From the NCBI GenBank assembly GCA_043750125.1, contig JAYVCD010000248.1:1-10508 (forward strand): DNA of 10,508 nt, read 5' to 3'. This document shows, one piece after another, positions 3 to 10,508 of this stretch. Origin of the DNA: Archangiaceae bacterium. Its GTDB lineage: Bacteria > Myxococcota > Myxococcia > Myxococcales > Myxococcaceae. The notes under the pieces were generated by a model. It made no database searches, had not been told where the DNA came from, and saw nothing but the letters and a program-made list of their open reading frames with translations. The position numbers and the translations under genes are program-made. The first letter of the stretch is position 1, and each line of letters opens with the position of its first letter.

Positions 3-1031
3 GCCGCGGTGCTGTCGGAAGAAGGCGCGATCGCGGTGCGCAACGGGCGGTTCTGCGCGCACATCTACGTCGATCGCCTGTTGGGCCGGGGGACGAAGGG
101 ACATGGAAAGGCGGGCAGCGCTCCGACCGGCGCGGTGCGGTGCAGCGTCGGGCTCTACAACGACGAGACCGATGTCGACCGCCTGCTCGAGTTCGTCGAG
201 CGGGTGCGGGATCGCAAGTGGAAGGGGCAGTACAAAGTGAAGGGCGACTCGGTGAGCGCCGAGTTCGCGGGCCGCTGTGCAGATCGGTGGATGGAAGCCT
301 CGCATCAAGAGGCCGAGCCCAACGGCCCGGTGGACAGCCCTTCGCTGGGCTACGACTTCGAGGTGCTCAATGGCAATGAGCCGTGCCGCACCTACCTGAT
401 CGCCGACCCGCAGACCCGCGAGGCGGCGCTGGTGGACCCGATTCGTGGGCACGTCGAGGCGTACATCGATCTGCTGATGGAGCGCCGCTACAAGCTTCGC
501 TACACGATCGAGACCCACACCCACGCCGACCACTTGTCCGGTTCGGTGCGGCTCAAAGACCTGACCGGGGCGAAGATGTTGATGCACGCCAACTCCCCTG
601 CCCCCTGTGTCGATCGCGGGCTGGTCGATGGCGACACAGTCGAGCTGGGGGGCCTGAAGATCGACGTCCTCGCCACCCCCGGCCACACCCACGACGCGAT
701 GTGCCTGGTCCTGCCGGGCCGGGTGCTGACCGGAGACACGCTGCTGATCGGCGCTGTCGGGCGCACCGACCTGCCGACTGGAAATTCCGCCGCCTTGTAC
801 GAGAGCCTGCAGAAGCTGATCGCCACGCTTCCCGACGACACCATCGTGCTCCCGGCGCATGACTACGAAGGGCGGCAGGCGAGCACGGTGGGCCGCGAGA
901 AGCGGCACAACCCGAGGCTGCAGCCGAAGAGCGCCGAGGAATTCGCCGACGTGATGGAAAAGGGACAAGTGGGGTTGCCGCCTCCGGTGAACCTGCGCGA
1001 GGCGCTGAACACCAACCTCAAGTGTCTGTAG
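3..1031 (+). CDS. 5'-truncated fusion protein: C-terminus of an aminotransferase class V / cysteine desulfurase-like domain joined to an MBL-fold persulfide dioxygenase (ETHE1/type I PDO-like)
   Basis: The frame is open from position 3 (GCC GCG GTG...), so the gene starts left of the window. The first ~70 aa (AIAVRNGRFCAH...GAVRCSVGLYNDETDVDRLLEFVERV) match the SufS/CsdA-type C-terminal pattern gIavRxGxxCAh...vRxSxgxYNxxxDvDrl, with the Cys codon at 54-56. From ~345 onward: TYLIAD...AALVDP, ETHTHADH (510-533), TPGHT, TGDTLLI, GRTDL, PAHDY, NPRL and terminal NLKC. These are ETHE1-type PDO motifs. Confidence 0.9.
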   Translation, partial: AAVLSEEGAIAVRNGRFCAHIYVDRLLGRGTKGHGKAGSAPTGAVRCSVGLYNDETDVDRLLEFVERVRDRKWKGQYKVKGDSVSAEFAGRCADRWMEASHQEAEPNGPVDSPSLGYDFEVLNGNEPCRTYLIADPQTREAALVDPIRGHVEAYIDLLMERRYKLRYTIETHTHADHLSGSVRLKDLTGAKMLMHANSPAPCVDRGLVDGDTVELGGLKIDVLATPGHTHDAMCLVLPGRVLTGDTLLIGAVGRTDLPTGNSAALYESLQKLIATLPDDTIVLPAHDYEGRQASTVGREKRHNPRLQPKSAEEFADVMEKGQVGLPPPVNLREALNTNLKCL

Positions 1032-1768
1032 TCGGGTTTCTGGCCGGGCTCGCGACGGGGCTGGTGCTCTCGGTGCTCGGCGCCGGAGGCAGCACCTTCA
1101 TCGTGCCGGTGCTGGTGTTCGGTCTTCACACCTCGGTCTCCGAAGCGATGGGGACGTCACTGGTAATCGTCGCCGCCGCGGCGATGGCGGCGAGCGTGGG
1201 CCACTGGCGCAAGGGCAACATCCACCCGAAAGTCGCCGGCCTGTTCGGCAGCGCGGCGATCGTGGGGGCGATCGCGGGCGCGTCGCTTCACCGGTTGGTC
1301 TCGGCGCGCACGTTGACCGCGCTGTTCGTGGTGCTGCTCTTCGCTGCGGCGGGTCGAATGGTCTGGGGAAAGCCGGTCGACCCCGAGCGCGCGCGTCAGC
1401 CGAGCGCCGCGATCTTGCTGCCGCTGGGCGCTGCGATCGGAGTGCTGTCGGGCTTTCTGGGCGTGGGAGGCGGCTTCTTAATCGTCCCGGCGCTCAGCTG
1501 GGGCGGAGGCTTGAGCGTGCGACAGGCGATCGGAACTTCGCTGTTGGTGATCGCGGTGTCCTCACTGGCGGGAGCGGCCAGCTACGCGGCGCAAGGTCAG
1601 CTGAGCGCTGGAATCTTGGCGACGGTGGGCGCGGGCGCGGTGATCGGTGCGTTCTCGGGCGCGCCGCTGTCGGGGAAGCTTCCCGAACGGCCGCTGCGCC
1701 TGGGCTTCGCGGGGTTGGCGGTGATGGTGGGAATTTTCATGGTGCTGAAGATCGCGACGACGGCGTGA
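1022..1768 (+). CDS. Sulfite exporter TauE/SafE (DUF81) family membrane protein
   Basis: 248 aa, almost all hydrophobic (~8 TM segments). It has the two-fold internal repeat of this family: LGAGGSTFIVPVL...AMGTSL and LGVGGGFLIVPAL...AIGTSL. The GTG start overlaps the upstream gene by 10 nt. Confidence 0.92.
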   Translation: MSVVGFLAGLATGLVLSVLGAGGSTFIVPVLVFGLHTSVSEAMGTSLVIVAAAAMAASVGHWRKGNIHPKVAGLFGSAAIVGAIAGASLHRLVSARTLTALFVVLLFAAAGRMVWGKPVDPERARQPSAAILLPLGAAIGVLSGFLGVGGGFLIVPALSWGGGLSVRQAIGTSLLVIAVSSLAGAASYAAQGQLSAGILATVGAGAVIGAFSGAPLSGKLPERPLRLGFAGLAVMVGIFMVLKIATTA

Positions 1769-1829: not shown

Positions 1830-3260
1830 TCAGGACCGCGATGGTGCTGTTCGGCTTGGGAGGAATCCTTTGATGAGCTGGCTGCGCTGCAACCGATCCA
1901 GCAGCGCCTCGACGCGCACCGGCTTCTCGAGAATCGGCATCTGGGTCGTCGCCATGAACGCGCAGATGTGGGGCTCAACGCCGCCGCCCGTCGAAAAGAC
2001 GAATCGGCTCGCGAGTTCCGGAGCGATCGCCGTCGCCCGCTGGAACACCTGCACGCCATCGACGCCCGGCATCTGCAGATCGCAGAGGACGACGTCGAAG
2101 CTGCGATCGTTTGCGAGAATGCGCAGCGCCTGCTCGCCGCAGCTGGCCGTCACCACGTCGTGCACGCCCTTCAACAGGATTTCATAGGTGAGCAGCAGCT
2201 TGGTCTCGTCATCGACGATCAGTACCCGCGCGCGCTTGTCGACGGTGGGATTGACGGCCGCCTCGGACAGCGGGCGCGCAGCGGGGCGGTGCGGCAGCCG
2301 CACTTCGAACCGCGCTCCACCGCTGGCGGAGGCCGAGACCGCCACCACGCCATGATGGCCGCGGACGATTTCGGTGACCATCGAGAGGCCGAGGCCCGTT
2401 CCCAGCTCGGGCGACTTGGTGGTGAAGAACGGCTCGAAGATCCGTTCACGCAGGGCGGGCGAGATGCCCGGACCGGTGTCCTCGACCACCAGCAGCGCGT
2501 GCTGCCCATCGATGCGCGTATGCACCGTCACTTCGTTGTCTGGGCCGCCCGCTTCCGCCACCGCCTGCGCCGCGTTCACCAGCAGGTTCGTCACCACCTG
2601 CGCCAGCCGGCCGCGGTTCCCATCGACGTGCGGCACCTCGCTCGACAGGACCAGCTTCACTTGTGCGCTCGAGCGCAGCGAAGGTCCGGCCAACCGGCAC
2701 GCGGCCTCGACGACGTCGTTGAGCGAGACGGCTTCGAAGCCATCGCCGTCGGCGCGCGAGAACGTGCGGAGATCTCCGGCGATAGCGCGGATCCGATCCA
2801 TTCCGTTGCGCGCGTGATTGACGTTCTGCTCCATCTCGGCGAGCACGGTGCCCACCGCATTCCGCAGCTGCGCGCCGTCGAGCGACGCGTCCGCCAGCCT
2901 CGCGCGGACGTCGGCGATTCGCTCTGCGAGCAGATCGACCGAGAGCGACACCCAGCTCGAAGGGTTGTTGATCTCGTGCGCGACCCCGCTGGCGATCTGC
3001 CCAATCGCGACGAGCTTCCCGCGGTGGAGCAGCTTCCCTTGCGTCTCTTTAAGCGCCGAGTAGGCGACTTCGAGCTCGCGCCTGGACGCGACCGCTCCAT
3101 GGAGCTCCTCGGCGAGCATGTTGAGCCCTGCTGCGATCGCGTCGATCTCATCGAGCCCGTCCCCGATCGGCGCGTGTTTCGAAAAATCCTGGCGCGCGAA
3201 GGCCAGCAGCACCTCGAGAAGCTGATCAATCCGCGGATCGTTTTGAGACGTGTCGCTCAC
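1830..3260 (-). CDS. Soluble hybrid sensor histidine kinase / response regulator (HAMP-like N-terminus, HisKA, HATPase_c, REC)
   Basis: H-box [10 protein letters not shown]-box [14 protein letters not shown]1 VEDTGPGI, F-box [10 protein letters not shown]2 GTGLGL. Receiver motifs [25 protein letters not shown] and LEKP. No TM segment. Start placed at GTG 3260, which forms a GTGA overlap with the upstream stop at 3259-3257; the ORF track start is 3284. Confidence 0.93.
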
Positions 3261-3646
3261 GAGCGGACTTGATCCATCAGCCACGAAATGGCCACGGTCT
3301 CTTGCGAGAACAGCTGGGTCGGGGTGCGGTGGTTCCCGTGCCGCAGGAAGAAGTTGCCGATCATCCGGCTCACGGGCGAGCCGACCAAAAGCGCCACTGC
3401 CGCGGTGAAACTCGCGGCGTTCTCACTGACGAACTCTTCGCGCGCTTCGCGGGTCTGGTACTTCAGGCCGCGGATGTCGACGAGCACCGGCAGCCGCTTG
3501 CCGCCCGCCAACTTCCCTGTGGCCGCAAGCGCTTCTTGCGCGTCGACGTGTTCCATCAGCGCGCCTTGCCGCATCGTCGCGCGAATGAAGCCTCTGGGAT
3601 CCAGTTGGATCGCACAGAGCCGGGTTTGGACCGAGCCATCAGGCAT
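3257..3646 (-). CDS. STAS/SEC14 (SpoIIAA-like, DUF7793-type) small cytoplasmic protein
   Basis: ~129 aa alpha/beta protein with PVLVDIR, REAREEF, AVALLVGSPVSRMIGNFF and PTQLF...AISWL. I recognise these motifs from small STAS/SEC14-like proteins found beside signalling genes. ATG 3646 preferred over TTG 3655. Confidence 0.75.
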   Translation of the reverse strand: MPDGSVQTRLCAIQLDPRGFIRATMRQGALMEHVDAQEALAATGKLAGGKRLPVLVDIRGLKYQTREAREEFVSENAASFTAAVALLVGSPVSRMIGNFFLRHGNHRTPTQLFSQETVAISWLMDQVRS

Positions 3647-3700
3647 GGACGGCAACTGTAACCCGTGCCCAGAGGAAGGTGCGAGGACAGCGGCCCCTGG

Positions 3701-4810
3701 TCAAGAAACGTAGCGACCATTGGCAAAGCGAACGGTCATCCAGATCAACATCGCGGCGCTCCCCAGGAACCAGCAGAGCCGAAGCCTGGGGCGCGGCTGC
3801 AGCTCGATCGCCAGCTGGGCCAACGCGGGGAAAGCGGCGAGCGCGTACCGGCCCAGCCCGATGAAATCGCGGCTGGTGATCAGCGGGATCCCCATCGCGA
3901 CTGCGGCGTAGGCGGTGTAGCCCCAACCCAACGTCCGCCGCGCGCGCCAGGCGAGCACGAGCACCGCCACCGCGAGCAGCGCGTGGAACAGCGGCAAGAA
4001 CAGATCGAGGAGTTTGTAGGACCGCAGCGCGTCGTACTTGAGCCAGGACCCCACGCCTCCGAGTTGGCCCCAGCCGGCCTGGGTGGTCATGAACCCGAAG
4101 GGGTCTGCGAACTTCGCGCCGAGGAAAGCCATGAAGGCGAGCGCGCCGAGCCCCGACAGTGCAGGGACGAAGTCGCGCGCGGTCAACGGTCGACCCTCGC
4201 GGCGCGCCAGTTCCAGCTGTCGAACCATCAGCCCGATGACGACCGCCGGGCCGATCGGCCGGGTGGCGGTGGCGAGCATTCCCAGCAGCGTGGCCGGGAA
4301 GACCTTGCCGCGCTCGAGCAACAGGAACGCTCCGGTCGCGAGCATCAGAAAGACGGCGTCGGAATACACCGCGCCATAGAGGAAGAAAGCGAACGGCCAC
4401 AGCAGCAACAGCCAGGTCGCAAGGCTTGCGTCCGCGGGCCGCAGCTGTGCGACCCAGCGGGAAAAGAAGACGGCGGCGAGGATCCCCGCGACCCAGGTGA
4501 TTCCCATGCCGGCGAGGAAAACCGGAACTCCCAGCGCCATCACCGCTCGAATCAGCAGGGGGTAGAGGGGGAAATACGCCGCGGCGCTCTGCTCGGTGGC
4601 CGAGAAGGTGTAGCCGCGCGCGGCGATCTGCTCGTACCAGCCGGCATCCCAACGGACCCACATGTCGAGGAAGGGCCAGGCGGCATAGAGGTCCGAAGTT
4701 CGGCCGGGGCCGGTCACCCCGAACTTCCACAACCCGAGGCTGCCGACGAGCATCACCCCCACGGCGGCGCCGAGGGTGCGGAGGATCACCGCACCGGGGG
4801 AAGGGGGCAC
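3701..4810 (-). CDS. GT-C fold polytopic membrane mannosyltransferase-family protein (PIG-V / Mannosyl_trans2-like)
   Basis: 369 aa with many TM segments. Signature first loop WVRWDAGWYEQIAARGY...AAYFPLYPLL, followed by YSDAVFL, TRPIG, QAGWG and GRYALAAFP. Start codon uncertain. Confidence 0.85.
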   Translation of the reverse strand: MPPSPGAVILRTLGAAVGVMLVGSLGLWKFGVTGPGRTSDLYAAWPFLDMWVRWDAGWYEQIAARGYTFSATEQSAAAYFPLYPLLIRAVMALGVPVFLAGMGITWVAGILAAVFFSRWVAQLRPADASLATWLLLLWPFAFFLYGAVYSDAVFLMLATGAFLLLERGKVFPATLLGMLATATRPIGPAVVIGLMVRQLELARREGRPLTARDFVPALSGLGALAFMAFLGAKFADPFGFMTTQAGWGQLGGVGSWLKYDALRSYKLLDLFLPLFHALLAVAVLVLAWRARRTLGWGYTAYAAVAMGIPLITSRDFIGLGRYALAAFPALAQLAIELQPRPRLRLCWFLGSAAMLIWMTVRFANGRYVS

Positions 4811-4834: not shown

Positions 4835-5521
4835 CTACAGCTTGGGGTAGCCCGAGATTTCGCCGGCTTTCAGTTCCGCGGCGAACTTACGAACGAAGGC
4901 GGTCTGATTGGGCAGCGACAACCCGTAGGCCTTTCCTTCGGCGAGGGCCTTGTCCACGCTCCACCCTTCGATTGCCATCCGGTAGCAGGCGGTGGCGACT
5001 CCGGTTCGGCCCTTTCCGGCCTCGCAGTGGACGTACGCAGGTTGATTCTCGGGCTTGCTGATGAAGTCGAGCATCTGCTTCATCTGTTGGGTGGACGGGG
5101 CGGAGTTGTCGAGGATCTTGACGTTCAGGGTGTTGAGGCCGGCTTTGGGAGCCCCCTTGCTGTCGTTGGTCCCTTCGAGCGTGAGGTCGACGATCGACTT
5201 GAAGCCTTGCTGCTTGAGCTTCTCGTAGCCCTTCGGGTCGTCGATGCGCGAGCCGCGGGTGAAGGTGTCGGAGACTTTGAATTCGTAGTGCGAGACCGGG
5301 TAGCGAAGTCCGGTGAGCTCGGTGACGCCTACGGCTTCGGCCGCGACGTTGATGAAGCCGTCCCGCACTTCCTGGGCGACCTGGGTGGTCCCGCTCCAAC
5401 CTTTCTTCGCTTCGGCAGCGACGGCCTGGCGGTCCTTCTTGAGCTCTTGGGCGACGTTCTTGGTGCCGGCTTCGACCTTGTCCTCGAACTTCTGGAGCAC
5501 GTTCCCGATTTTCAAACCCAT
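4835..5521 (-). CDS. Cys-based protein-tyrosine/dual-specificity (CX5R) phosphatase with a ~65-aa helical N-terminal extension
   Basis: P-loop PAYVHCEAGKGRTG (Cys 5026-5024, Arg 5008-5006). Upstream RGSR...LKQQGFKSIVDL and downstream ACYRMAIEGWSVDKALAE are typical of atypical DSPs. ATG 5521 has a purine-rich RBS (AAGGGGAAGGGA); the track start at 5635 overlaps the upstream gene. Confidence 0.88.
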   Translation of the reverse strand: MGLKIGNVLQKFEDKVEAGTKNVAQELKKDRQAVAAEAKKGWSGTTQVAQEVRDGFINVAAEAVGVTELTGLRYPVSHYEFKVSDTFTRGSRIDDPKGYEKLKQQGFKSIVDLTLEGTNDSKGAPKAGLNTLNVKILDNSAPSTQQMKQMLDFISKPENQPAYVHCEAGKGRTGVATACYRMAIEGWSVDKALAEGKAYGLSLPNQTAFVRKFAAELKAGEISGYPKL

Positions 5522-5592
5522 GAGCTGTCCCTTCCCCTTTGCCGAGCCGGCGGAATAGAGCCGACCGCCGAAGCCTGTGCAAGTCGCCGCTG

Positions 5593-7878
5593 TCAGCCGA
5601 TGTCGTCGATGGTGTTGATGTCCGTTACGTCCCAATCGGGCATGCCCCGGTGCCCCTTGAGGTAGGCGGCGAGCTCGGGGTTCCGGTAGCCGAGCGCCTC
5701 GAGCACCTTGTCCTGCACCGGGCCCAGGTTGTGGCGTTGGTAGAGGTCATCGGCCTGGGCCATGCCGGTCACTGGGTTGAAGAGCACGCTGTAGACGCTG
5801 GTGAGCGGGTTGTCGACGTACTGAAATTCCCCGTGGCCGACCGCCATCTTGACGAAGTCCACGGTCTCTTTCGCATCGAGGCCAAACAGCGCTGCGGTCT
5901 TGATCGCGGTGGCGGCTTCCGCGTCGTTGAGGTTCACGTTCGGGGCGGCGGCCAGCGTTCGAATCTGCGCAGGGCTCAGACCCAGCTGGGTGAGGCGCTG
6001 AATGGTCGCCGCTTTCGCGCTGATGATTTCTTTGGCCTGGTCGAGCGGGACGCCGGTGACCTTCGCGTAGAGCTCAGACTGTTCTTTCTGAAGCTTGTCG
6101 CGGGCGTCGTTGCCTTCGATCATCGAGTCGATGAACCCGCCGATCCCATGAATGATGGTCCCGGCGATGGTAAGCACCCCGTCGACCGCGGTGCCGAGAA
6201 CCGGAACGTAGCCGGCCACGTCCCCGCCCAGCTGAACGAGGGTGCCGATCGCTTTGACGATTTCGCCCGCGTTGGGATCGTTGCGCAGCTCATTGATGTC
6301 CTGACCCAGCTGCACCGCGTCGAGCACCATCCCCAGGCCGGGAGCGAACCTGCCGATGAACTTCGAGGCGTCGGGCGCGAGCCGGGCGGCGCCAGCGTAC
6401 GAGGTGAGAATTCCGGCGGTGATCTGCAGACCCGCGGCTGACGCGCCCAGGCCCTTCTTCAACGCCTCGACGTAGTGGCCGTCGCTCAGCGCTTTGCCGG
6501 TGCCGTAGAGGCCGGCGACGACGGTGAAGACCGCGGCGGCTTTGCCGAACTTCGACTTCGAGTCCCACCCTTCGACGATCTTGTCGAGGTGCTCGGGGCT
6601 GCCGTTTGCGAAGCGCTCGGTGTCGTCGAGGAACTTGCCGACCTCGGTCCCGAGGGTCTTGAACGCCTTTGCGCCCTTGAAGTCCCCGAAGATCCGCTTC
6701 ATGTCGGCGAGCAGCTGCTGCTTGCCGTCTGGAGAGTCCCCGTACTTGGCCAGCAGCTGCTGCTGCACGGCGACCGTGGCGTCGGTCATCAACCCGTCAG
6801 ACAGCCGGGTCTCGAGGTTGTCGTTGATGAACCCGTCGATCGTCTTGAACAGCTCGGGGTCGTTTCCCAGCTTCTTTGCGAACGTCAGGGCCTGCTCGGC
6901 GTGGGCGGGATCTTTGGCGATCACCTCGTACGCATCGAGCATCGCCTCGCCGGCGCCCTCGTTGCCCGCGCGGGCCATCGCCTCGAGCTGCGGCCCGGCG
7001 ACTTCCAGAGTCCGCGCGAGCGCGTCTGAGGAAGACGTGGCGGTGGCTTTGATTTGAGCGTGCTCGGGAATCGCCCAGAACTGGGTCTCGTAATTCTGGC
7101 GTTCCTCGGGGGTCAGGGTGCCGCCAAAGCTCGCCATGTCCTGCGCCAATCGGGTGTCGAGCTCGGCCTTCTTCTCGCCCGCGCTCTTGGCTTCCTCGCG
7201 CAGCTGGTCCACGCCATCGACCAACGCTTTGTCGATCGCGTCCGCGCCCTTGGAGTTGCCTGAGGCACGCAAGGCTGCGGCGGTGGCGAGCGCCAGGTCC
7301 GGGCCTGCGCCGGCGTGAATGGAAGCAACGAGGGCATCATCGATTTCCCCCACCTTGCCGTCGGTGGGGATGATCGCCGCGAGGCGTCCGGCGAGCTCGG
7401 TGACGGCTTGCGGCCCCACGATTCGAGCGGCATGGGCCAGCGAGGTGATGACCTGCTCAGTGTCCGCTTTGCTCAGCGGCTCGAGCTTCTGGAGCACGTC
7501 ATCGATGATCGGTTGGGTCGCGGTGTAGACCTCTTTGGCCTGCTCCGGAGTCAACGACTGCACCTGCACTTCGAGCTCAGTCGCCGCGGCCACCGGGCCT
7601 TGGGTGGCGAGCGCCTCTTTGACCTTGGTGGAGGCGGCATTGGCGGCCGCGCTGAGCGGGACGGTGCTCGGAGCCGCGATGCTCCTGGGCGCAGGGGGCC
7701 CGAGCAAAGGCAAAGCAGCGTCAGTACGAAACGCGCTGAGCCGAAGTGCTTTGCCTGCGCCGGTCGAAAACTCATCACTCTTCTTCAGCACAGCCGCTTT
7801 GGGCGCCGGCGCAGGAGCGGCCTTCGGCTTCAGCGGGGTGACCCATCGCGTCGGAGAGTCTGAGATTCGTCGGGTCAA
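5593..7878 (-). CDS. Large (~760 aa) Ala-rich helical hypothetical protein with a Pro/Ala-rich N-terminus and Gly/Ala hydrophobic helices; possible secreted effector or translocator-like protein
   Basis: Long ORF with GC-rich third codon positions. No Sec signal or lipobox. Hydrophobic/amphipathic helices at ~6546-6115. Start placed at TTG 7878 (MTRRISDSPT...) because the extension to 7944 reads like intergenic sequence and spans a candidate promoter. The function is an inference. Confidence 0.8.
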   Translation of the reverse strand: MTRRISDSPTRWVTPLKPKAAPAPAPKAAVLKKSDEFSTGAGKALRLSAFRTDAALPLLGPPAPRSIAAPSTVPLSAAANAASTKVKEALATQGPVAAATELEVQVQSLTPEQAKEVYTATQPIIDDVLQKLEPLSKADTEQVITSLAHAARIVGPQAVTELAGRLAAIIPTDGKVGEIDDALVASIHAGAGPDLALATAAALRASGNSKGADAIDKALVDGVDQLREEAKSAGEKKAELDTRLAQDMASFGGTLTPEERQNYETQFWAIPEHAQIKATATSSSDALARTLEVAGPQLEAMARAGNEGAGEAMLDAYEVIAKDPAHAEQALTFAKKLGNDPELFKTIDGFINDNLETRLSDGLMTDATVAVQQQLLAKYGDSPDGKQQLLADMKRIFGDFKGAKAFKTLGTEVGKFLDDTERFANGSPEHLDKIVEGWDSKSKFGKAAAVFTVVAGLYGTGKALSDGHYVEALKKGLGASAAGLQITAGILTSYAGAARLAPDASKFIGRFAPGLGMVLDAVQLGQDINELRNDPNAGEIVKAIGTLVQLGGDVAGYVPVLGTAVDGVLTIAGTIIHGIGGFIDSMIEGNDARDKLQKEQSELYAKVTGVPLDQAKEIISAKAATIQRLTQLGLSPAQIRTLAAAPNVNLNDAEAATAIKTAALFGLDAKETVDFVKMAVGHGEFQYVDNPLTSVYSVLFNPVTGMAQADDLYQRHNLGPVQDKVLEALGYRNPELAAYLKGHRGMPDWDVTDINTIDDIG

Positions 7879-7911
7879 AGGGCGCTCGAGAGTGAAGAAG
7901 GGCTTGAGAGA

Positions 7912-7919
7912 GTATCGGC
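7912..7919 (-). promoter_or_regulatory. Candidate sigma28/FliA-type -10 element (GCCGATAC)
   Basis: 7/8 match to the GCCGATAA consensus, 33 nt upstream of TTG 7878. There is no canonical TAAA -35 at 15-nt spacing; TCAC lies 13 nt upstream. Confidence 0.4.
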
Positions 7920-8009
7920 AAGGCACCTGGAGGTGACAGGTCACGAATTGTCAAAGGAGCTGACGAACCTGCCTTGAATGGCAGCGGTCCCGAAGGGCAC
8001 CATCGCGCC

Positions 8010-10034
8010 ATGAACTTGCGACTGGTGGGGCTGTTCGTGCTTCTTGGGGGTTGCGGCGGGCCCATCATCAGTCTTGCCGACAGCGGTTCGGGAGGTGGAA
8101 ACGGCAGCGGAGGAGGAGGAGGAGGAGGAGGCGGCGGCGGCGAAATCGACGGGGGTCTGGATCCCGATGGCGGAGTGCTTCCCGATGGGGGGTTGCCTCT
8201 GCTGGGGCCGCTGACGTTCCGGCACGTGGTCGCCTCGATGCACGGTCTGGCAGGTCAGAACCCGGGAGACGCGGTGATCGAGGCCTCGGGGCGGGTGGTG
8301 TCGTTTCCCGCTGTGACGACCCCGACCCTCTCGGCATTGACGACCGTACGGTTGGTCGATGGAGGCACGCTGCTGTCCGATGGCGGCTACCAGGCGTTCG
8401 TCGAAGCAATCCCCGTCGCGGGGCCGGTCCGTTCCGGTCGACAGATGGCCAGCTGCTACGACCCGGGAAGCGGGAGGCATGTGGCCGTGCTGCTCGGCCA
8501 AAATCCCGACAAGTACGAAGTGGGCTCGTTCGTGATCGTCAACGGGAAGGCGCAGTTCAGCAGTTGGAACGCGGTGAATGCTCCTGCGGTGCAAGGGGCG
8601 GCGGTGACGGCGATCTACCCCGCCGGGGCCGACACCTTCTCGGTCTACAAGGGCAATGAGCTGATTCCGCTGACGCTCTCGGGCGGCAACGCGACGTGGG
8701 GAACGGCTGCGACGTTCGTCGGGGCTGCACCGCCCGTGACCGCCTTCGATTCTTCCGGGGGTCGGCTGATTGGCCTGGGGGAATACATCGGCCCGCTACC
8801 CATTACTTTTCGCCACTCGTTGTTCTCGCGGGCCGCGGTGAGCGCGGGCGCGTGGGCTCCGATTGCGATGACCGGGGAGATGCCGCCCGACATCACCGGG
8901 CCGCTGGCGACGCTCTCCAAGCCGTGGATCGCGTGGGAAGGGTCGGCCCAGAAGCTGACCGTCGTTCAATACCACCCGGTTGTTTTGCCCAACGGGATGA
9001 TGGGAATAACGCAGGGTTTGTGGACGGCAGATCTGGGCACCCACCAGTGGAAGAAGGTGATGGACCTGGGCTCGAGCGTGATCGGCTCGCAGCCGTATGC
9101 GATCGATGAAGTGCTTCACCGGGCGTTCAGCCTGAGCCAGACCGGCTTCACCACGATGTCGCTCAAGGCGGGCAGCGAGGGGACAGGCGGGTCGGTTCCC
9201 ACCCAAGGCCCGCTGCGGATCGGCACGGTCCAGGGCGCGGTTGGACTTCCCGATGGACGCATGGTCGCCAGCACCTTGAGCCAGCTGTGGGCGATGAACC
9301 CGGCGACGGACCTGGTGTGGCACTTGTTTGCCAACCTGCCGGCCCAGGTGCGTGGCCACTCGCTGTCTTTCGATCCGGTGACGCAGAAGGTGTACGTGTT
9401 TGGCGGCGCCTCGAAGGTCTGGGAAGTCACGCTGGCGGGTGTGGTGAACGAGCTGGTGACGACCGGCGGACCGACGGGACCGCGCGAGGCGCACGGAGCG
9501 GCGGCGATCGACGGTGTCTTGTATGTGGCGGGAGGCACGACCAACTGGAACGTCGGCGGCGAGCTCGATGATGTCTGGGCGCTCGACTTGAGCACCCGGG
9601 CGTGGCGCAAGCTGGGGACGATGGCGGCGAAGCGGCTGCGGCCCGCGGTGCGAATCAACGGAGCCGAGCTGTGGGTGGTGGGCGGCGCTCGGGTTCAAGG
9701 CAGCTCTTCGGTCGGTGAGTCGACGATTGTCGCGTTCGATCGCCAAAGCGGAGCCCAGCGCACGGTGGCGGTGAGCGGCGCCTGGCCTCCGCGCGGAGGC
9801 TACTTCTGGAGCTGGGCTCCCCTGGGCGAAGGCATCGTGGCCATCGACTCGGGAGACACGGTCGACAACTCGACGAATCAGCTGTGGACTCTCGATGTGC
9901 TGGGGGCCGACGTGAAGTGGATCAACAGCGATCCGGCAGCGTCGGATTACGCGTTCTACAGCCAGGTCGGCGCGTCGGCAGATCGCCGGACTGCGTACTT
10001 CCTGGGCGACGACGTGTGGGAGCTGAAGCGGTAG
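8010..10034 (+). CDS. Kelch-repeat / beta-propeller lipoprotein
   Basis: ATG 8010 gives MNLRLVGLFVLLGG-C (lipobox, Cys15), then a poly-Gly linker and DGG repeats, then a beta-rich body. C-terminal kelch units: GHSLSFDPVTQKVYVFGG, REAHGAAAIDGVLYVAGG...DDVWALDLSTRAWRKLGTM, and GAELWVVGG. Confidence 0.85.
   Translation: MNLRLVGLFVLLGGCGGPIISLADSGSGGGNGSGGGGGGGGGGGEIDGGLDPDGGVLPDGGLPLLGPLTFRHVVASMHGLAGQNPGDAVIEASGRVVSFPAVTTPTLSALTTVRLVDGGTLLSDGGYQAFVEAIPVAGPVRSGRQMASCYDPGSGRHVAVLLGQNPDKYEVGSFVIVNGKAQFSSWNAVNAPAVQGAAVTAIYPAGADTFSVYKGNELIPLTLSGGNATWGTAATFVGAAPPVTAFDSSGGRLIGLGEYIGPLPITFRHSLFSRAAVSAGAWAPIAMTGEMPPDITGPLATLSKPWIAWEGSAQKLTVVQYHPVVLPNGMMGITQGLWTADLGTHQWKKVMDLGSSVIGSQPYAIDEVLHRAFSLSQTGFTTMSLKAGSEGTGGSVPTQGPLRIGTVQGAVGLPDGRMVASTLSQLWAMNPATDLVWHLFANLPAQVRGHSLSFDPVTQKVYVFGGASKVWEVTLAGVVNELVTTGGPTGPREAHGAAAIDGVLYVAGGTTNWNVGGELDDVWALDLSTRAWRKLGTMAAKRLRPAVRINGAELWVVGGARVQGSSSVGESTIVAFDRQSGAQRTVAVSGAWPPRGGYFWSWAPLGEGIVAIDSGDTVDNSTNQLWTLDVLGADVKWINSDPAASDYAFYSQVGASADRRTAYFLGDDVWELKR
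8109..8141 (+). repeat. Trinucleotide repeat (GGA)7(GGC)4 encoding an 11-Gly linker
   Basis: Read directly from the sequence; in frame within the kelch lipoprotein. Confidence 0.95.
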
Positions 10035-10255: not shown

Positions 10256-10508
10256 ATGCGTCGTCCTATGTATTTGTGGTTGTCCACAGCGGCCTGCGTC
10301 ACCCTGCTGTCTGCGTGCGGTGGAATGCCTCAGACGACGTGCACCACCGCGGCACAGTGCAAAGCTGGGCAGATCTGCACCAACGGTGTGTGCCAGACCG
10401 TCGGCGGCACCGGCGGCGGAGTGGGAACGGGCGGCGGAGTGGGAACGGGCGGCGGAATGGGAACGGGCGGCGGAGTCGGGACGGGCGGCGGAGTCGGGAC
10501 GGGCGGCG
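10256..10508 (+). CDS. 3'-truncated lipoprotein with a Cys-rich motif and a Gly/Thr repeat linker (not in the ORF track)
   Basis: GGAG RBS at 10246-10249 and ATG at 10256. Manual translation: MRRPMYLWLSTAACVTLLSA-CGGMPQTTCTTAAQCKAGQICTNGVCQTVGGT(GGG[VM]GT)5GG... Lipobox LSAC (Cys21) and a C-x5-C-x5-C-x4-C motif. The frame stays open to the window edge. Confidence 0.9.
   Translation, partial: MRRPMYLWLSTAACVTLLSACGGMPQTTCTTAAQCKAGQICTNGVCQTVGGTGGGVGTGGGVGTGGGMGTGGGVGTGGGVGTGG
10412..10508 (+). repeat. 18-bp in-frame tandem repeat GGCGGCGGA(G/A)T(G/C)GG(A/G)ACG, at least 5 copies, encoding GGG[VM]GT
   Basis: Units start at 10412, 10430, 10448, 10466 and 10484; a partial sixth unit from 10502 runs off the window. 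Confidence 0.95.

Follow-up and report, generated by a model that had tools for sequence, protein, structure and literature searches.

Examination of a 10,508-nucleotide (nt) stretch of DNA from an Archangiaceae bacterium, hereafter the window, revealed at its left edge the 3' part of a gene whose full product is a predicted enzyme of about 820 amino acids (aa) made up, in this order, of a rhodanese, a SufS-like pyridoxal 5'-phosphate (PLP)-dependent cysteine desulfurase with a cysteine-bearing tail, and a type I persulfide dioxygenase (PDO). Sequence comparisons indicate that the fusion is genuine and conserved, neither a lost stop nor an assembly error. As far as the literature searched shows, what is new is an architecture that is so far uncharacterised and built from well-known enzymes, together with the SufS-like clade to which its desulfurase belongs. 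We propose, at about an even chance of being right, that the enzyme converts cysteine to alanine and an enzyme persulfide, which would then be oxidised to sulfite or thiosulfate and exported.

A conserved fusion of rhodanese, desulfurase and persulfide dioxygenase

The window comprises bases 1 to 10,508 of contig C248 (JAYVCD010000248.1), from an assembly of 460 contigs that is 89.4% complete. An open reading frame (ORF) scan found no internal stop in ORF 3..1031 (+ strand, 342 aa), whose 5' end is open. Since the window starts at base 1 of the contig, the truncation of the gene reflects the contig end, not a mutation; the off-contig 5' part measures about 1.44 kb. The parts of this gene and the gene that follows it are:

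3..1031, + strand, last 342 codons and stop of a tri-domain fusion gene (rhodanese / SufS-like cysteine desulfurase with Cys tail / type I persulfide dioxygenase)
3..200, + strand, C-terminal end of the SufS-like Aminotran_5 domain (Pfam; alignment to solved SufS structures via an orthologue)
201..296, + strand, conserved 32-residue tail RVRDRKWKGQYKVKGDSVSAEFAGRCADRWME, with an invariant Cys at nt 276-278, hallmark of a SufS-like clade
297..350, + strand, variable, weakly conserved spacer from the tail to the PDO domain (alignments; predicted local distance difference test, pLDDT, <50)
351..1028, + strand, ETHE1-like (type I) persulfide dioxygenase domain (Pfam; sequence, motif and fold matches)
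1022..1768, + strand, gene for a TauE/SafE-family anion (predicted sulfite) exporter of 248 aa (Pfam PF01925 TauE, 6e-51)

The initial annotation, made from the letters of this stretch alone, had read the ORF as a single frame joining a desulfurase C-terminus to a full metallo-beta-lactamase (MBL) domain, and Pfam recovered both. In the window protein, Lactamase_B covers residues 126-286 (E 3.1e-13), and residues 2-61 match the final 46 positions of the Aminotran_5 profile, with 20.5 bits against a cut-off of 21.5 and with 25.2 bits in the whole-genome scan. The active-site loop RNGRFCAH lies at nt 39-62 and its Cys codon exactly where it had been placed, at 54-56; the substrate-binding Arg sits within VRCSVGLYND, also in the desulfurase part (nt 3..200), as located through the same alignment to SufS structures. 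The MBL iron-ligand motifs that had been named (THADH, TPGHT and TGD) were found as THTHADH (HxHxDH) at 513-533, TPGHTHD at 675-695 and LTGDTLL at 726-746; further sites of the PDO domain are GRTD at 759-776, HDY at 855-875 and a C-terminal Cys at 1023-1025. The segment between the two domains, first described as a linker of about 40 aa, proved instead to be the conserved 32-residue tail with its invariant Cys and a variable spacer of about 18 residues.

The full gene, with an intact Aminotran_5 domain, is present in close relatives. P0003, an 821-aa protein encoded on a 12.7-kb contig, is identical to the window protein at 341 of 342 residues and carries Rhodanese, Aminotran_5 and Lactamase_B, and P0001 (822 aa, same genus, 90% identical) shows these Pfam domains at residues 36-118, 165-541 (7.3e-88) and 607-766, respectively. 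The desulfurase is thus intact in full-length relatives, including the PLP lysine, which answers the concern that the upstream part might be a degenerate fragment without its PLP site. The junction was also traced in metagenome data: unitigs from four runs of one study tile nt 149-1100 with no joints and no indels, although the four runs possibly represent the source sample and so do not count as independent evidence. These unitigs extend the open frame beyond nt 3, and the ten codons just upstream read NVEGVSDLLT against FNVDGVSDLLT in an orthologue. No RNA data set is listed as carrying the stretch. The missing 5' half was absent from the other contigs of the same assembly, where the sole match was an unrelated rhodanese (39% identity).

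Ten of 41 related genomes, all ten in the window's family, gave a match over the whole 342-aa query, in open frames of 666-886 aa where the contig permits. In an even sample of the phylum, full-length matches (E <=1e-125) were found in 15 of 401 genomes, in open frames of 817-918 aa: the window's own, 11 of 171 other genomes of its family and 3 of 20 genomes of a second family. Identity to the orthologues in the 14 other genomes was 60-91%. In a protein collection, the junction region was matched by 750 of 8,000 scored candidates (E <=1e-10), and 115 of the best 120 of these matches carried Rhodanese, Aminotran_5 and Lactamase_B in proteins of about 810-860 aa. The remaining five lacked the rhodanese family only, four of them being 493-556 aa long on contigs of 1.9-3.8 kb and the fifth 690 aa on a 5.6-kb contig. 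This shared architecture, together with the near-identical 821-aa protein, argues that the fusion is not an artefact; the suspicion that relatives encode two separate genes, and that the junction is an assembly error or a lost stop, does not survive the conservation of the fusion across relatives. Source labels of the carriers include Myxococcaceae, Archangiaceae/Archangium, Kofleriaceae, Nannocystaceae and Polyangia, as well as two metagenome-assembled genomes (MAGs) labelled Pseudomonadota and Rickettsiales (51-53% identity), in both of which the three domains were confirmed; this spread makes a myxobacterial origin of the window most likely. Queried with the window protein, a set of 1.84 billion representative proteins yielded P0123, a divergent canonical fusion (49% identical), besides P0125 and P0244, which are described below. 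Residue conservation is given below for an alignment of 114 full-length proteins, consisting of P0001 and 113 of the best 120 matches; it omits six truncated rows as well as P0002, a later-starting version of the same protein.

Existing automatic annotation already names such proteins, for example as 'selenocysteine lyase/cysteine desulfurase/glyoxylase-like metal-dependent hydrolase', so the sequences themselves are not new. Neither a fusion of desulfurase and PDO nor the tail is described or characterised in the literature searched, which included passages of two papers on PDO fusions (PMC12934615 and PMC9163753) and of a desulfurase review; tables S6 and S7 of PMC9163753, on rhodanese domains near sqr-pdo genes, might list such proteins. 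In that 2021 review of bacterial cysteine desulfurases (PMC8300815), the words 'fused', 'fusion', 'dioxygenase' and 'lactamase' never occur.

Catalytic domains and the cysteine-bearing tail

Alignment with solved SufS structures spans the whole desulfurase part (best 4e-66; about 3e-57 for E. coli SufS/CsdB) and brings the His of EHHxN, the Lys of GHK, the Cys loop and the substrate Arg into register. Both the PLP Lys and the loop Cys are conserved in 114/114 proteins. The PLP Lys motif (S/A/G)-G-H-K lies off the window, as AGAGHKAYAP in P0003, and the R-x-G-x-x-C-A type of Cys loop is represented by RNGRFCAH, which aligns to the SufS loop Cys. Besides the fusion gene, the genome has at least five strong Aminotran_5 genes, so that the fusion need not be the housekeeping desulfurase.

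The domain shares with the SufS/CsdA type II desulfurases a full-length alignment, the PLP Lys, the EHHxN His, the Arg and the Cys loop. Unlike them, it scores below the curated cut-off, falls in a separate clade on a long stem, bears the invariant-Cys tail and is fused to a rhodanese and a PDO. SufS/CsdA-type enzymes need a Cys-bearing acceptor (SufE, SufU or CsdE), whereas no SufE, SufU or SufBCD gene is adjacent here, and no SufE, SufU, CsdE or suf-operon gene was found among the neighbours of 13 loci. The tail Cys or the rhodanese domain may replace the missing acceptor. The second-best NCBIfam model for the desulfurase is that of the family 2A encapsulin cargo desulfurases (NF041166; 270 bits against a cut-off of 800 bits), and PMC10925157 links rhodanese to family 2A encapsulin systems. 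In contrast to these cargo proteins, the fusion has no encapsulin gene and no N-terminal targeting region, and it contains a PDO.

The tail corresponds to residues 67-98 of the window protein. Ten of its positions are invariant, among them the Cys at nt 276-278 (114/114) and W, G, Y, R, D, W, M and E residues, with a motif …AGRCADxWME; the approximately 18 residues that follow are variable. The same tail is found without a PDO in the complete genome of Cystobacter fuscus Cbf 10, where a rhodanese-SufS-tail protein stops just past the tail motif, and in a Polyangium MAG, where a 472-aa protein consists of SufS and tail alone and the tail is the protein end. It also stands at the end of several partial proteins, two of them labelled Planctomycetota, and it ends P0125, a metagenome protein ordered PDO-rhodanese-SufS-tail. 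Because it is kept in these PDO-less and permuted relatives, the tail is part of the desulfurase and not of the PDO, and the existence of PDO-less relatives means that coupling of desulfurase and PDO is not obligatory. That the tail might be an N-terminal extension of stand-alone PDOs was considered and rejected: the PDO-like genes at G018:C10 and G033:C96, whose matches begin near query residue 88, are without the motif. A look-up of the ESM Atlas with the tail gave no usable match.

In a tree of the desulfurase domain, whose alignment included the tail columns, 17 tail-bearing rows formed one clade apart from 16 plain SufS proteins (Shimodaira-Hasegawa-like approximate likelihood ratio test, SH-aLRT, 100; stem length 1.37). 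The tail motif occurred in none of the 16 plain SufS proteins compared, and in a search of shorter proteins the matches of plain-SufS length covered merely about 58-69% of the region. In this tree the Cystobacter form has a fused Archangium protein as its sister (support 99) and is nested in the fused clade, which suggests that its PDO was lost secondarily; P0125 groups in the same way with a fused Polyangia protein (support 98). One source gives Archangium sp. as the host of a fused homologue. We found this tail-bearing SufS-like clade described nowhere in the literature searched, and its tail may be an intramolecular substitute for SufE or SufU.

In structure models both of the window's 342 residues and of an 822-aa protein, the Cys-bearing part of the tail and the spacer form the sole long low-confidence stretch. 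The 822-aa model has a pLDDT <50 at residues 562-589 and 591-593, a mean pLDDT of 83.5 and a predicted template modelling score (pTM) of 0.61, and because of the latter the domain arrangement is uncertain. A tail that is conserved yet predicted to be flexible fits a mobile arm, or a segment that would dock only in the dimer.

The rhodanese domain most resembles, among NCBIfam models, the MoeB/MoeZ-type rhodanese (82.8 bits, below cut-off). Its catalytic position is Cys in 71/114 proteins, Ser in 42/114 and Asp in 1/114, the Ser forms belonging to one lineage; the active loop of P0003, CSTGNRS, is the commonest form. An extra Cys between the rhodanese and desulfurase domains (A-x-C-R-x-P-G; P0001 residue 131) is kept in 112/114 fused proteins and has a possible counterpart in the Polyangium SufS-tail protein.

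By sequence, motif and fold, the MBL domain is a type I (ETHE1-like) PDO, with a persulfide as its probable substrate. The closest solved relatives are 9RHQ, the Myxococcus xanthus ETHE1/MxPDO 4YSB (1.5e-51) and the PDO-rhodanese fusion BpPRF (1.3e-41), followed by human ETHE1 4CHL (4.2e-40) and Arabidopsis ETHE1 2GCU (3e-38); the best glyoxalase II reached 1.8e-23. In the model of the window's 342 residues the pLDDT exceeds 90 across the PDO domain, which superposes on 4YSB with a template modelling (TM) score of 0.92 and a root-mean-square deviation of 1.9 A, and the Foldseek ranks 1-11 are all PDOs, with glyoxalase II from rank 25 down. The preference for an ETHE1-type PDO over glyoxalase II in the initial annotation was therefore borne out by sequence and fold alike. 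Conservation is complete (114/114 proteins) for all four HxHxDH residues, both further His and the Asp, and likewise for Arg and Asp in GRTD and Tyr in HDY; the Arg of NPR, mapped via the 4YSB alignment, is present in 108/114. Sections of PMC6060420 describe 4YSB, 4CHL and 2GCU among the type I PDOs, the iron site as a 2-His-1-carboxylate site and, in AcPDO numbering, R139, Y173, R190 and K212 as glutathione-binding residues. The stand-alone type I PDOs (4CHL, 4YSB, 2GCU) have the same fold (TM 0.85-0.92), and their metal ligands, GRTD Arg/Asp, HDY Tyr and C-terminal Cys recur in the fusion, which differs from them in being joined to a persulfide generator and in apparently not conserving the glutathione-binding Lys at the aligned column.

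An ETHE1-like Fe(II) PDO covalently joined to a rhodanese is also known from BpPRF (PDB 5VE3-5) and Staphylococcus aureus CstB; BpPRF is among the best matches by sequence and by fold (rank 2), and association with a TauE gene is a further likeness. The initial annotation had set the fusion apart from the known fusions of PDOs with sulfurtransferases. The joining to a desulfurase stands, but the fusion is no exception to the PDO-sulfurtransferase rule, since an N-terminal rhodanese is present as well. Members of the PRF/CstB/Blh kind carry a sulfurtransferase with a catalytic Cys directly fused to the PDO, either a C-terminal rhodanese or, in Blh, an N-terminal DUF442; no such direct fusion was found here, the rhodanese being N-terminal and about 480 residues from the PDO, and the NCBIfam Blh model gave 100 bits against a cut-off of 625. 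In contrast to PRF and CstB, a whole PLP desulfurase lies between rhodanese and PDO, a persulfide source is thereby built in, and the rhodanese Cys is dispensable in 43/114. The PDO is here of type I, whereas the rhodanese-fused PDOs of the sqr-pdo operons surveyed in PMC9163753 are reported to be of type III.

The three activities are also united in other ways. P0125, with the PDO in front, is a single metagenome protein on a 5.9-kb contig, and no second copy of its order was found, the other 119 of the 120 matches listed having the canonical order; as a singleton on so short a contig it could be an assembly chimera. P0244 (768 aa, on a 142-kb contig) unites a class I (NifS/IscS-type) desulfurase that lacks the Cys tail with a rhodanese and an MBL domain, and its MBL domain may not be a typical PDO because the equivalent of GRTD is GRDD. 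In a tree of PDO domains the ten main fused rows form one clade (support 99) and the PDO domains of P0125 and P0244 fall elsewhere, which indicates that the three-activity combination arose more than once. Other PDO-domain fusions among the best 150 representatives are P0174 (Usp-PDO-rhodanese), P0224 (Usp-PDO), P0181 (STAS-PDO with a weak rhodanese match), and P0211, P0238 and P0235, in which FAD/NAD(P)-binding or pyridine-nucleotide-disulfide-oxidoreductase domains precede the PDO.

Putative function in cysteine sulfur oxidation

The gene that follows the fusion encodes a TauE/SafE-family exporter, matching Pfam TauE with 173.8 bits (cut-off 32.6) over profile positions 2-237 of 237; sulfite is its predicted substrate. 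Its GTG start (1022) overlaps the TAG stop of the fusion gene (1029-1031) by 10 nt, and the two genes are probably translationally coupled. TauE lies directly 3' of the fusion gene at 4 of 13 loci (the window and three relatives), with the identical 10-nt overlap in 3 of the 4, and at 5 of 20 loci of a second, partly overlapping sample. It is the sole recurring neighbour, and no recurrent biosynthetic neighbour was seen at the 13 loci. One relative (G011; L017 11108-12373) carries a PDO-rhodanese gene 2.4 kb downstream of the fusion-TauE pair, and in another (G033; L028 548-2664) a TauE gene is directly followed by a PDO-rhodanese gene. In G004 a LysR gene lies just upstream of the orthologue (best subfamily GcvA, 95 bits against a cut-off of 288); none was seen in this position at the other loci examined.

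In the proposed pathway, the SufS-like domain would desulfurate L-cysteine to L-alanine and a persulfide on the loop Cys (nt 54-56), a step that we infer from the conservation of all catalytic residues. The sulfane sulfur would then pass to an acceptor, for which the tail Cys (nt 276-278), the rhodanese Cys and a small thiol such as glutathione are candidates. Passages of PMC9163753 (its reference 20) report that rhodanese domains take sulfur from cysteine desulfurases. As for glutathione, the genome has two moderate matches to the glutathione synthetase family, which are uninformative because the family also matches control genomes without glutathione. The Fe(II) PDO domain would use O2 to oxidise the presumed persulfide to sulfite, the rhodanese Cys, where present, may join sulfite and a second persulfide to give thiosulfate, and TauE would export the oxyanion; the exporter gene next to the fusion is in keeping with sulfite as the proposed product. 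Overall, the pathway would break down or detoxify cysteine without free H2S and would not be the housekeeping supply of sulfur for iron-sulfur (Fe-S) clusters. Such H2S-free breakdown of cysteine would suit protein-eating myxobacteria.

The mitochondrial route of plants uses separate enzymes, an aminotransferase, the sulfurtransferase STR1 and ETHE1. It starts by transamination of cysteine to 3-mercaptopyruvate and yields pyruvate as carbon product; the PDO oxidises the persulfide to sulfite and the sulfurtransferase makes thiosulfate. The proposed pathway shares this overall logic and differs in its PLP-dependent desulfuration, in alanine as carbon product and in the use of one chain. A plant cysteine-catabolic route via persulfides and ETHE1 is described in the preprint 10.1101/2025.05.23.655777. 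If the proposal is true, one polypeptide would take cysteine sulfur to an exported oxyanion without free H2S or a diffusible persulfide, by a bacterial route of cysteine breakdown that differs from the cysteine dioxygenase and desulfhydrase routes and from the persulfide pathway of plants and animals. It would also link SufS-type desulfurases and ETHE1-type dioxygenases, so far separate in Fe-S assembly and sulfide detoxification, and provide a natural system for persulfide channelling between active sites.

A more specific version, which we put forward tentatively and hold to be rather less probable, makes the tail a built-in swinging arm. Its Cys would carry the persulfide from the loop Cys to the PDO iron as a glutathione mimic and be oxidised on the protein to a Cys-S-sulfonate, and the sulfur would leave as sulfite or, by way of the rhodanese Cys, as thiosulfate. 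The invariance of the tail Cys, the predicted flexibility of the tail, the apparent loss of the glutathione-binding Lys and the precedent of CstB support this version; the persistence of the tail in forms without PDO counts against it. For CstB, passages of a bioRxiv preprint (PMC12934615) describe a Cys on a mobile loop as substrate carrier: it becomes persulfidated, is oxidised at the iron of the PDO and hands its load on to the rhodanese Cys. For the proposed pathway as a whole, docking models lend weak support to a docking of the PDO domain on the SufS-tail unit: the pair scored 0.43 against 0.00 for the best of three controls, at least 44% of contacts agreed between runs and the partner pLDDT was at least 85. 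The mark used for docking was reached by 58/80 solved complexes and by 2/110 mismatched pairs, and with scores <=0.60 it was reached by just 7/80 solved complexes and by both passing mismatches. If true, the swinging arm would make the protein a self-contained 'cysteine-sulfur oxidase' that needs no small thiol, and would define a new SufS subfamily with its acceptor in the same chain.

Several observations weigh against a dedicated cysteine-to-oxyanion enzyme. TauE adjoins the fusion at a minority of loci and the other neighbourhoods are unrelated. The desulfurase-tail unit appears to have a use of its own, because two relatives keep it without the PDO, the tail is predicted to be disordered (pLDDT <50), and the docking result is itself only weak. 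The NCBIfam sufS model TIGR01979 gave 326.1 bits against a cut-off of 475.1, and with such a score the desulfurase might act on a substrate other than cysteine. Thiosulfate formation cannot be general, since the rhodanese Cys is lost in 43/114 proteins. Finally, the column equivalent to the glutathione-binding K212, mapped via 4YSB, holds Lys in 2/114 proteins, and the next column K or R in 51/114.

A rather unlikely alternative is a detoxification of sulfane sulfur or H2S as in PRF and CstB, in which persulfides would come from elsewhere and the desulfurase-like domain would be an acceptor, a sensor or a minor source. The characterised bacterial PDO fusions treated in passages of PMC12934615 and PMC9163753 are all with sulfurtransferases and act on pre-formed persulfides, and the PDO-rhodanese genes near TauE in two relatives, 2.4 kb downstream of the fusion-TauE pair in one and directly after TauE in the other, agree with such a role. 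A complete PLP catalytic set in 114/114 proteins is, however, hard to square with a mere acceptor, the neighbour genes scanned yielded no sulfide:quinone oxidoreductase, and the frequent loss of the rhodanese Cys tells against this view as well. Slightly less probable still is a biosynthetic desulfurase mobilising sulfur for some thio-cofactor or metabolite, with the PDO as a safety valve for unclaimed persulfide. The PDO-less forms of Cystobacter fuscus and the Polyangium MAG show that desulfurase and tail work alone, the tail Cys would be akin in role to the dedicated acceptors SufE or SufU, and the rhodanese is most like the MoeB/MoeZ type. Against these points stand the varied contexts, in which no biosynthetic gene recurs and the sulfite exporter does, and the nesting of the Cystobacter form in the fused clade, which makes it a secondary loss.

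CsdA and SufS act on cysteine sulfinate and selenocysteine in vitro. The PLP domain might then work mainly on L-cysteine sulfinate, giving alanine and sulfite, or on L-selenocysteine, with the PDO handling side products; the PDB matches deposited as CsdA 'cysteine sulfinate desulfinase' and SufS/CsdB 'selenocysteine lyase', the adjoining sulfite exporter and the score below the curated SufS cut-off would agree with this. We nevertheless regard it as improbable, because desulfination needs no catalytic Cys, yet the loop Cys and the tail Cys are both invariant, and because the PDO has no obvious role in that chemistry. The idea that the MBL domain belongs to glyoxalase II or some other thiolesterase, or that the fusion is an assembly artefact or one-off lost stop, is largely refuted and very improbable. 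It draws on the glyoxalase II model TIGR03413 (GSH_gloB), the best NCBIfam model for the MBL domain at 108.2 bits against a cut-off of 200.8, and on the window being without the gene's 5' part. PDOs are ahead by about 28 orders of magnitude in E-value and also lead in the fold search, and the fusion recurs in 115 of the best 120 matches and in 15 genomes, with unitigs tiling the junction.

Other features of the window

A hairpin after the TauE gene (nt 1785-1806) was considered as a terminator and rejected, since one hairpin was found against 0.9 expected by chance. Downstream, 1830-3284 (- strand) encodes a hybrid histidine kinase (HAMP, HisKA, HATPase_c and receiver domains) and overlaps the end of a gene for a DUF7793 protein (3257-3655, - strand); no link of this pair to sulfur genes was seen. 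A PIG-V-like membrane mannosyltransferase (3701-4810, - strand) adjoins the gene of a dual-specificity/PTP-like phosphatase (4835-5635, - strand; Tc-R-P and PTP-NADK families, about 1e-17). The next gene (5593-7944, - strand) encodes a 783-aa Ala-rich protein without a Pfam match at E <=0.01, and its 5' end lies 30 nt from the start of a gene (7974-10034, + strand) for a 686-aa protein that combines Kelch repeats with an N-terminal stretch rich in Gly. The right edge of the window is occupied by an 18-nt tandem repeat (10412-10508; 5.4 copies, 94% matches), which encodes a GGVGTG-type Gly-rich repeat in an ORF that starts at 10256 and runs off the window.

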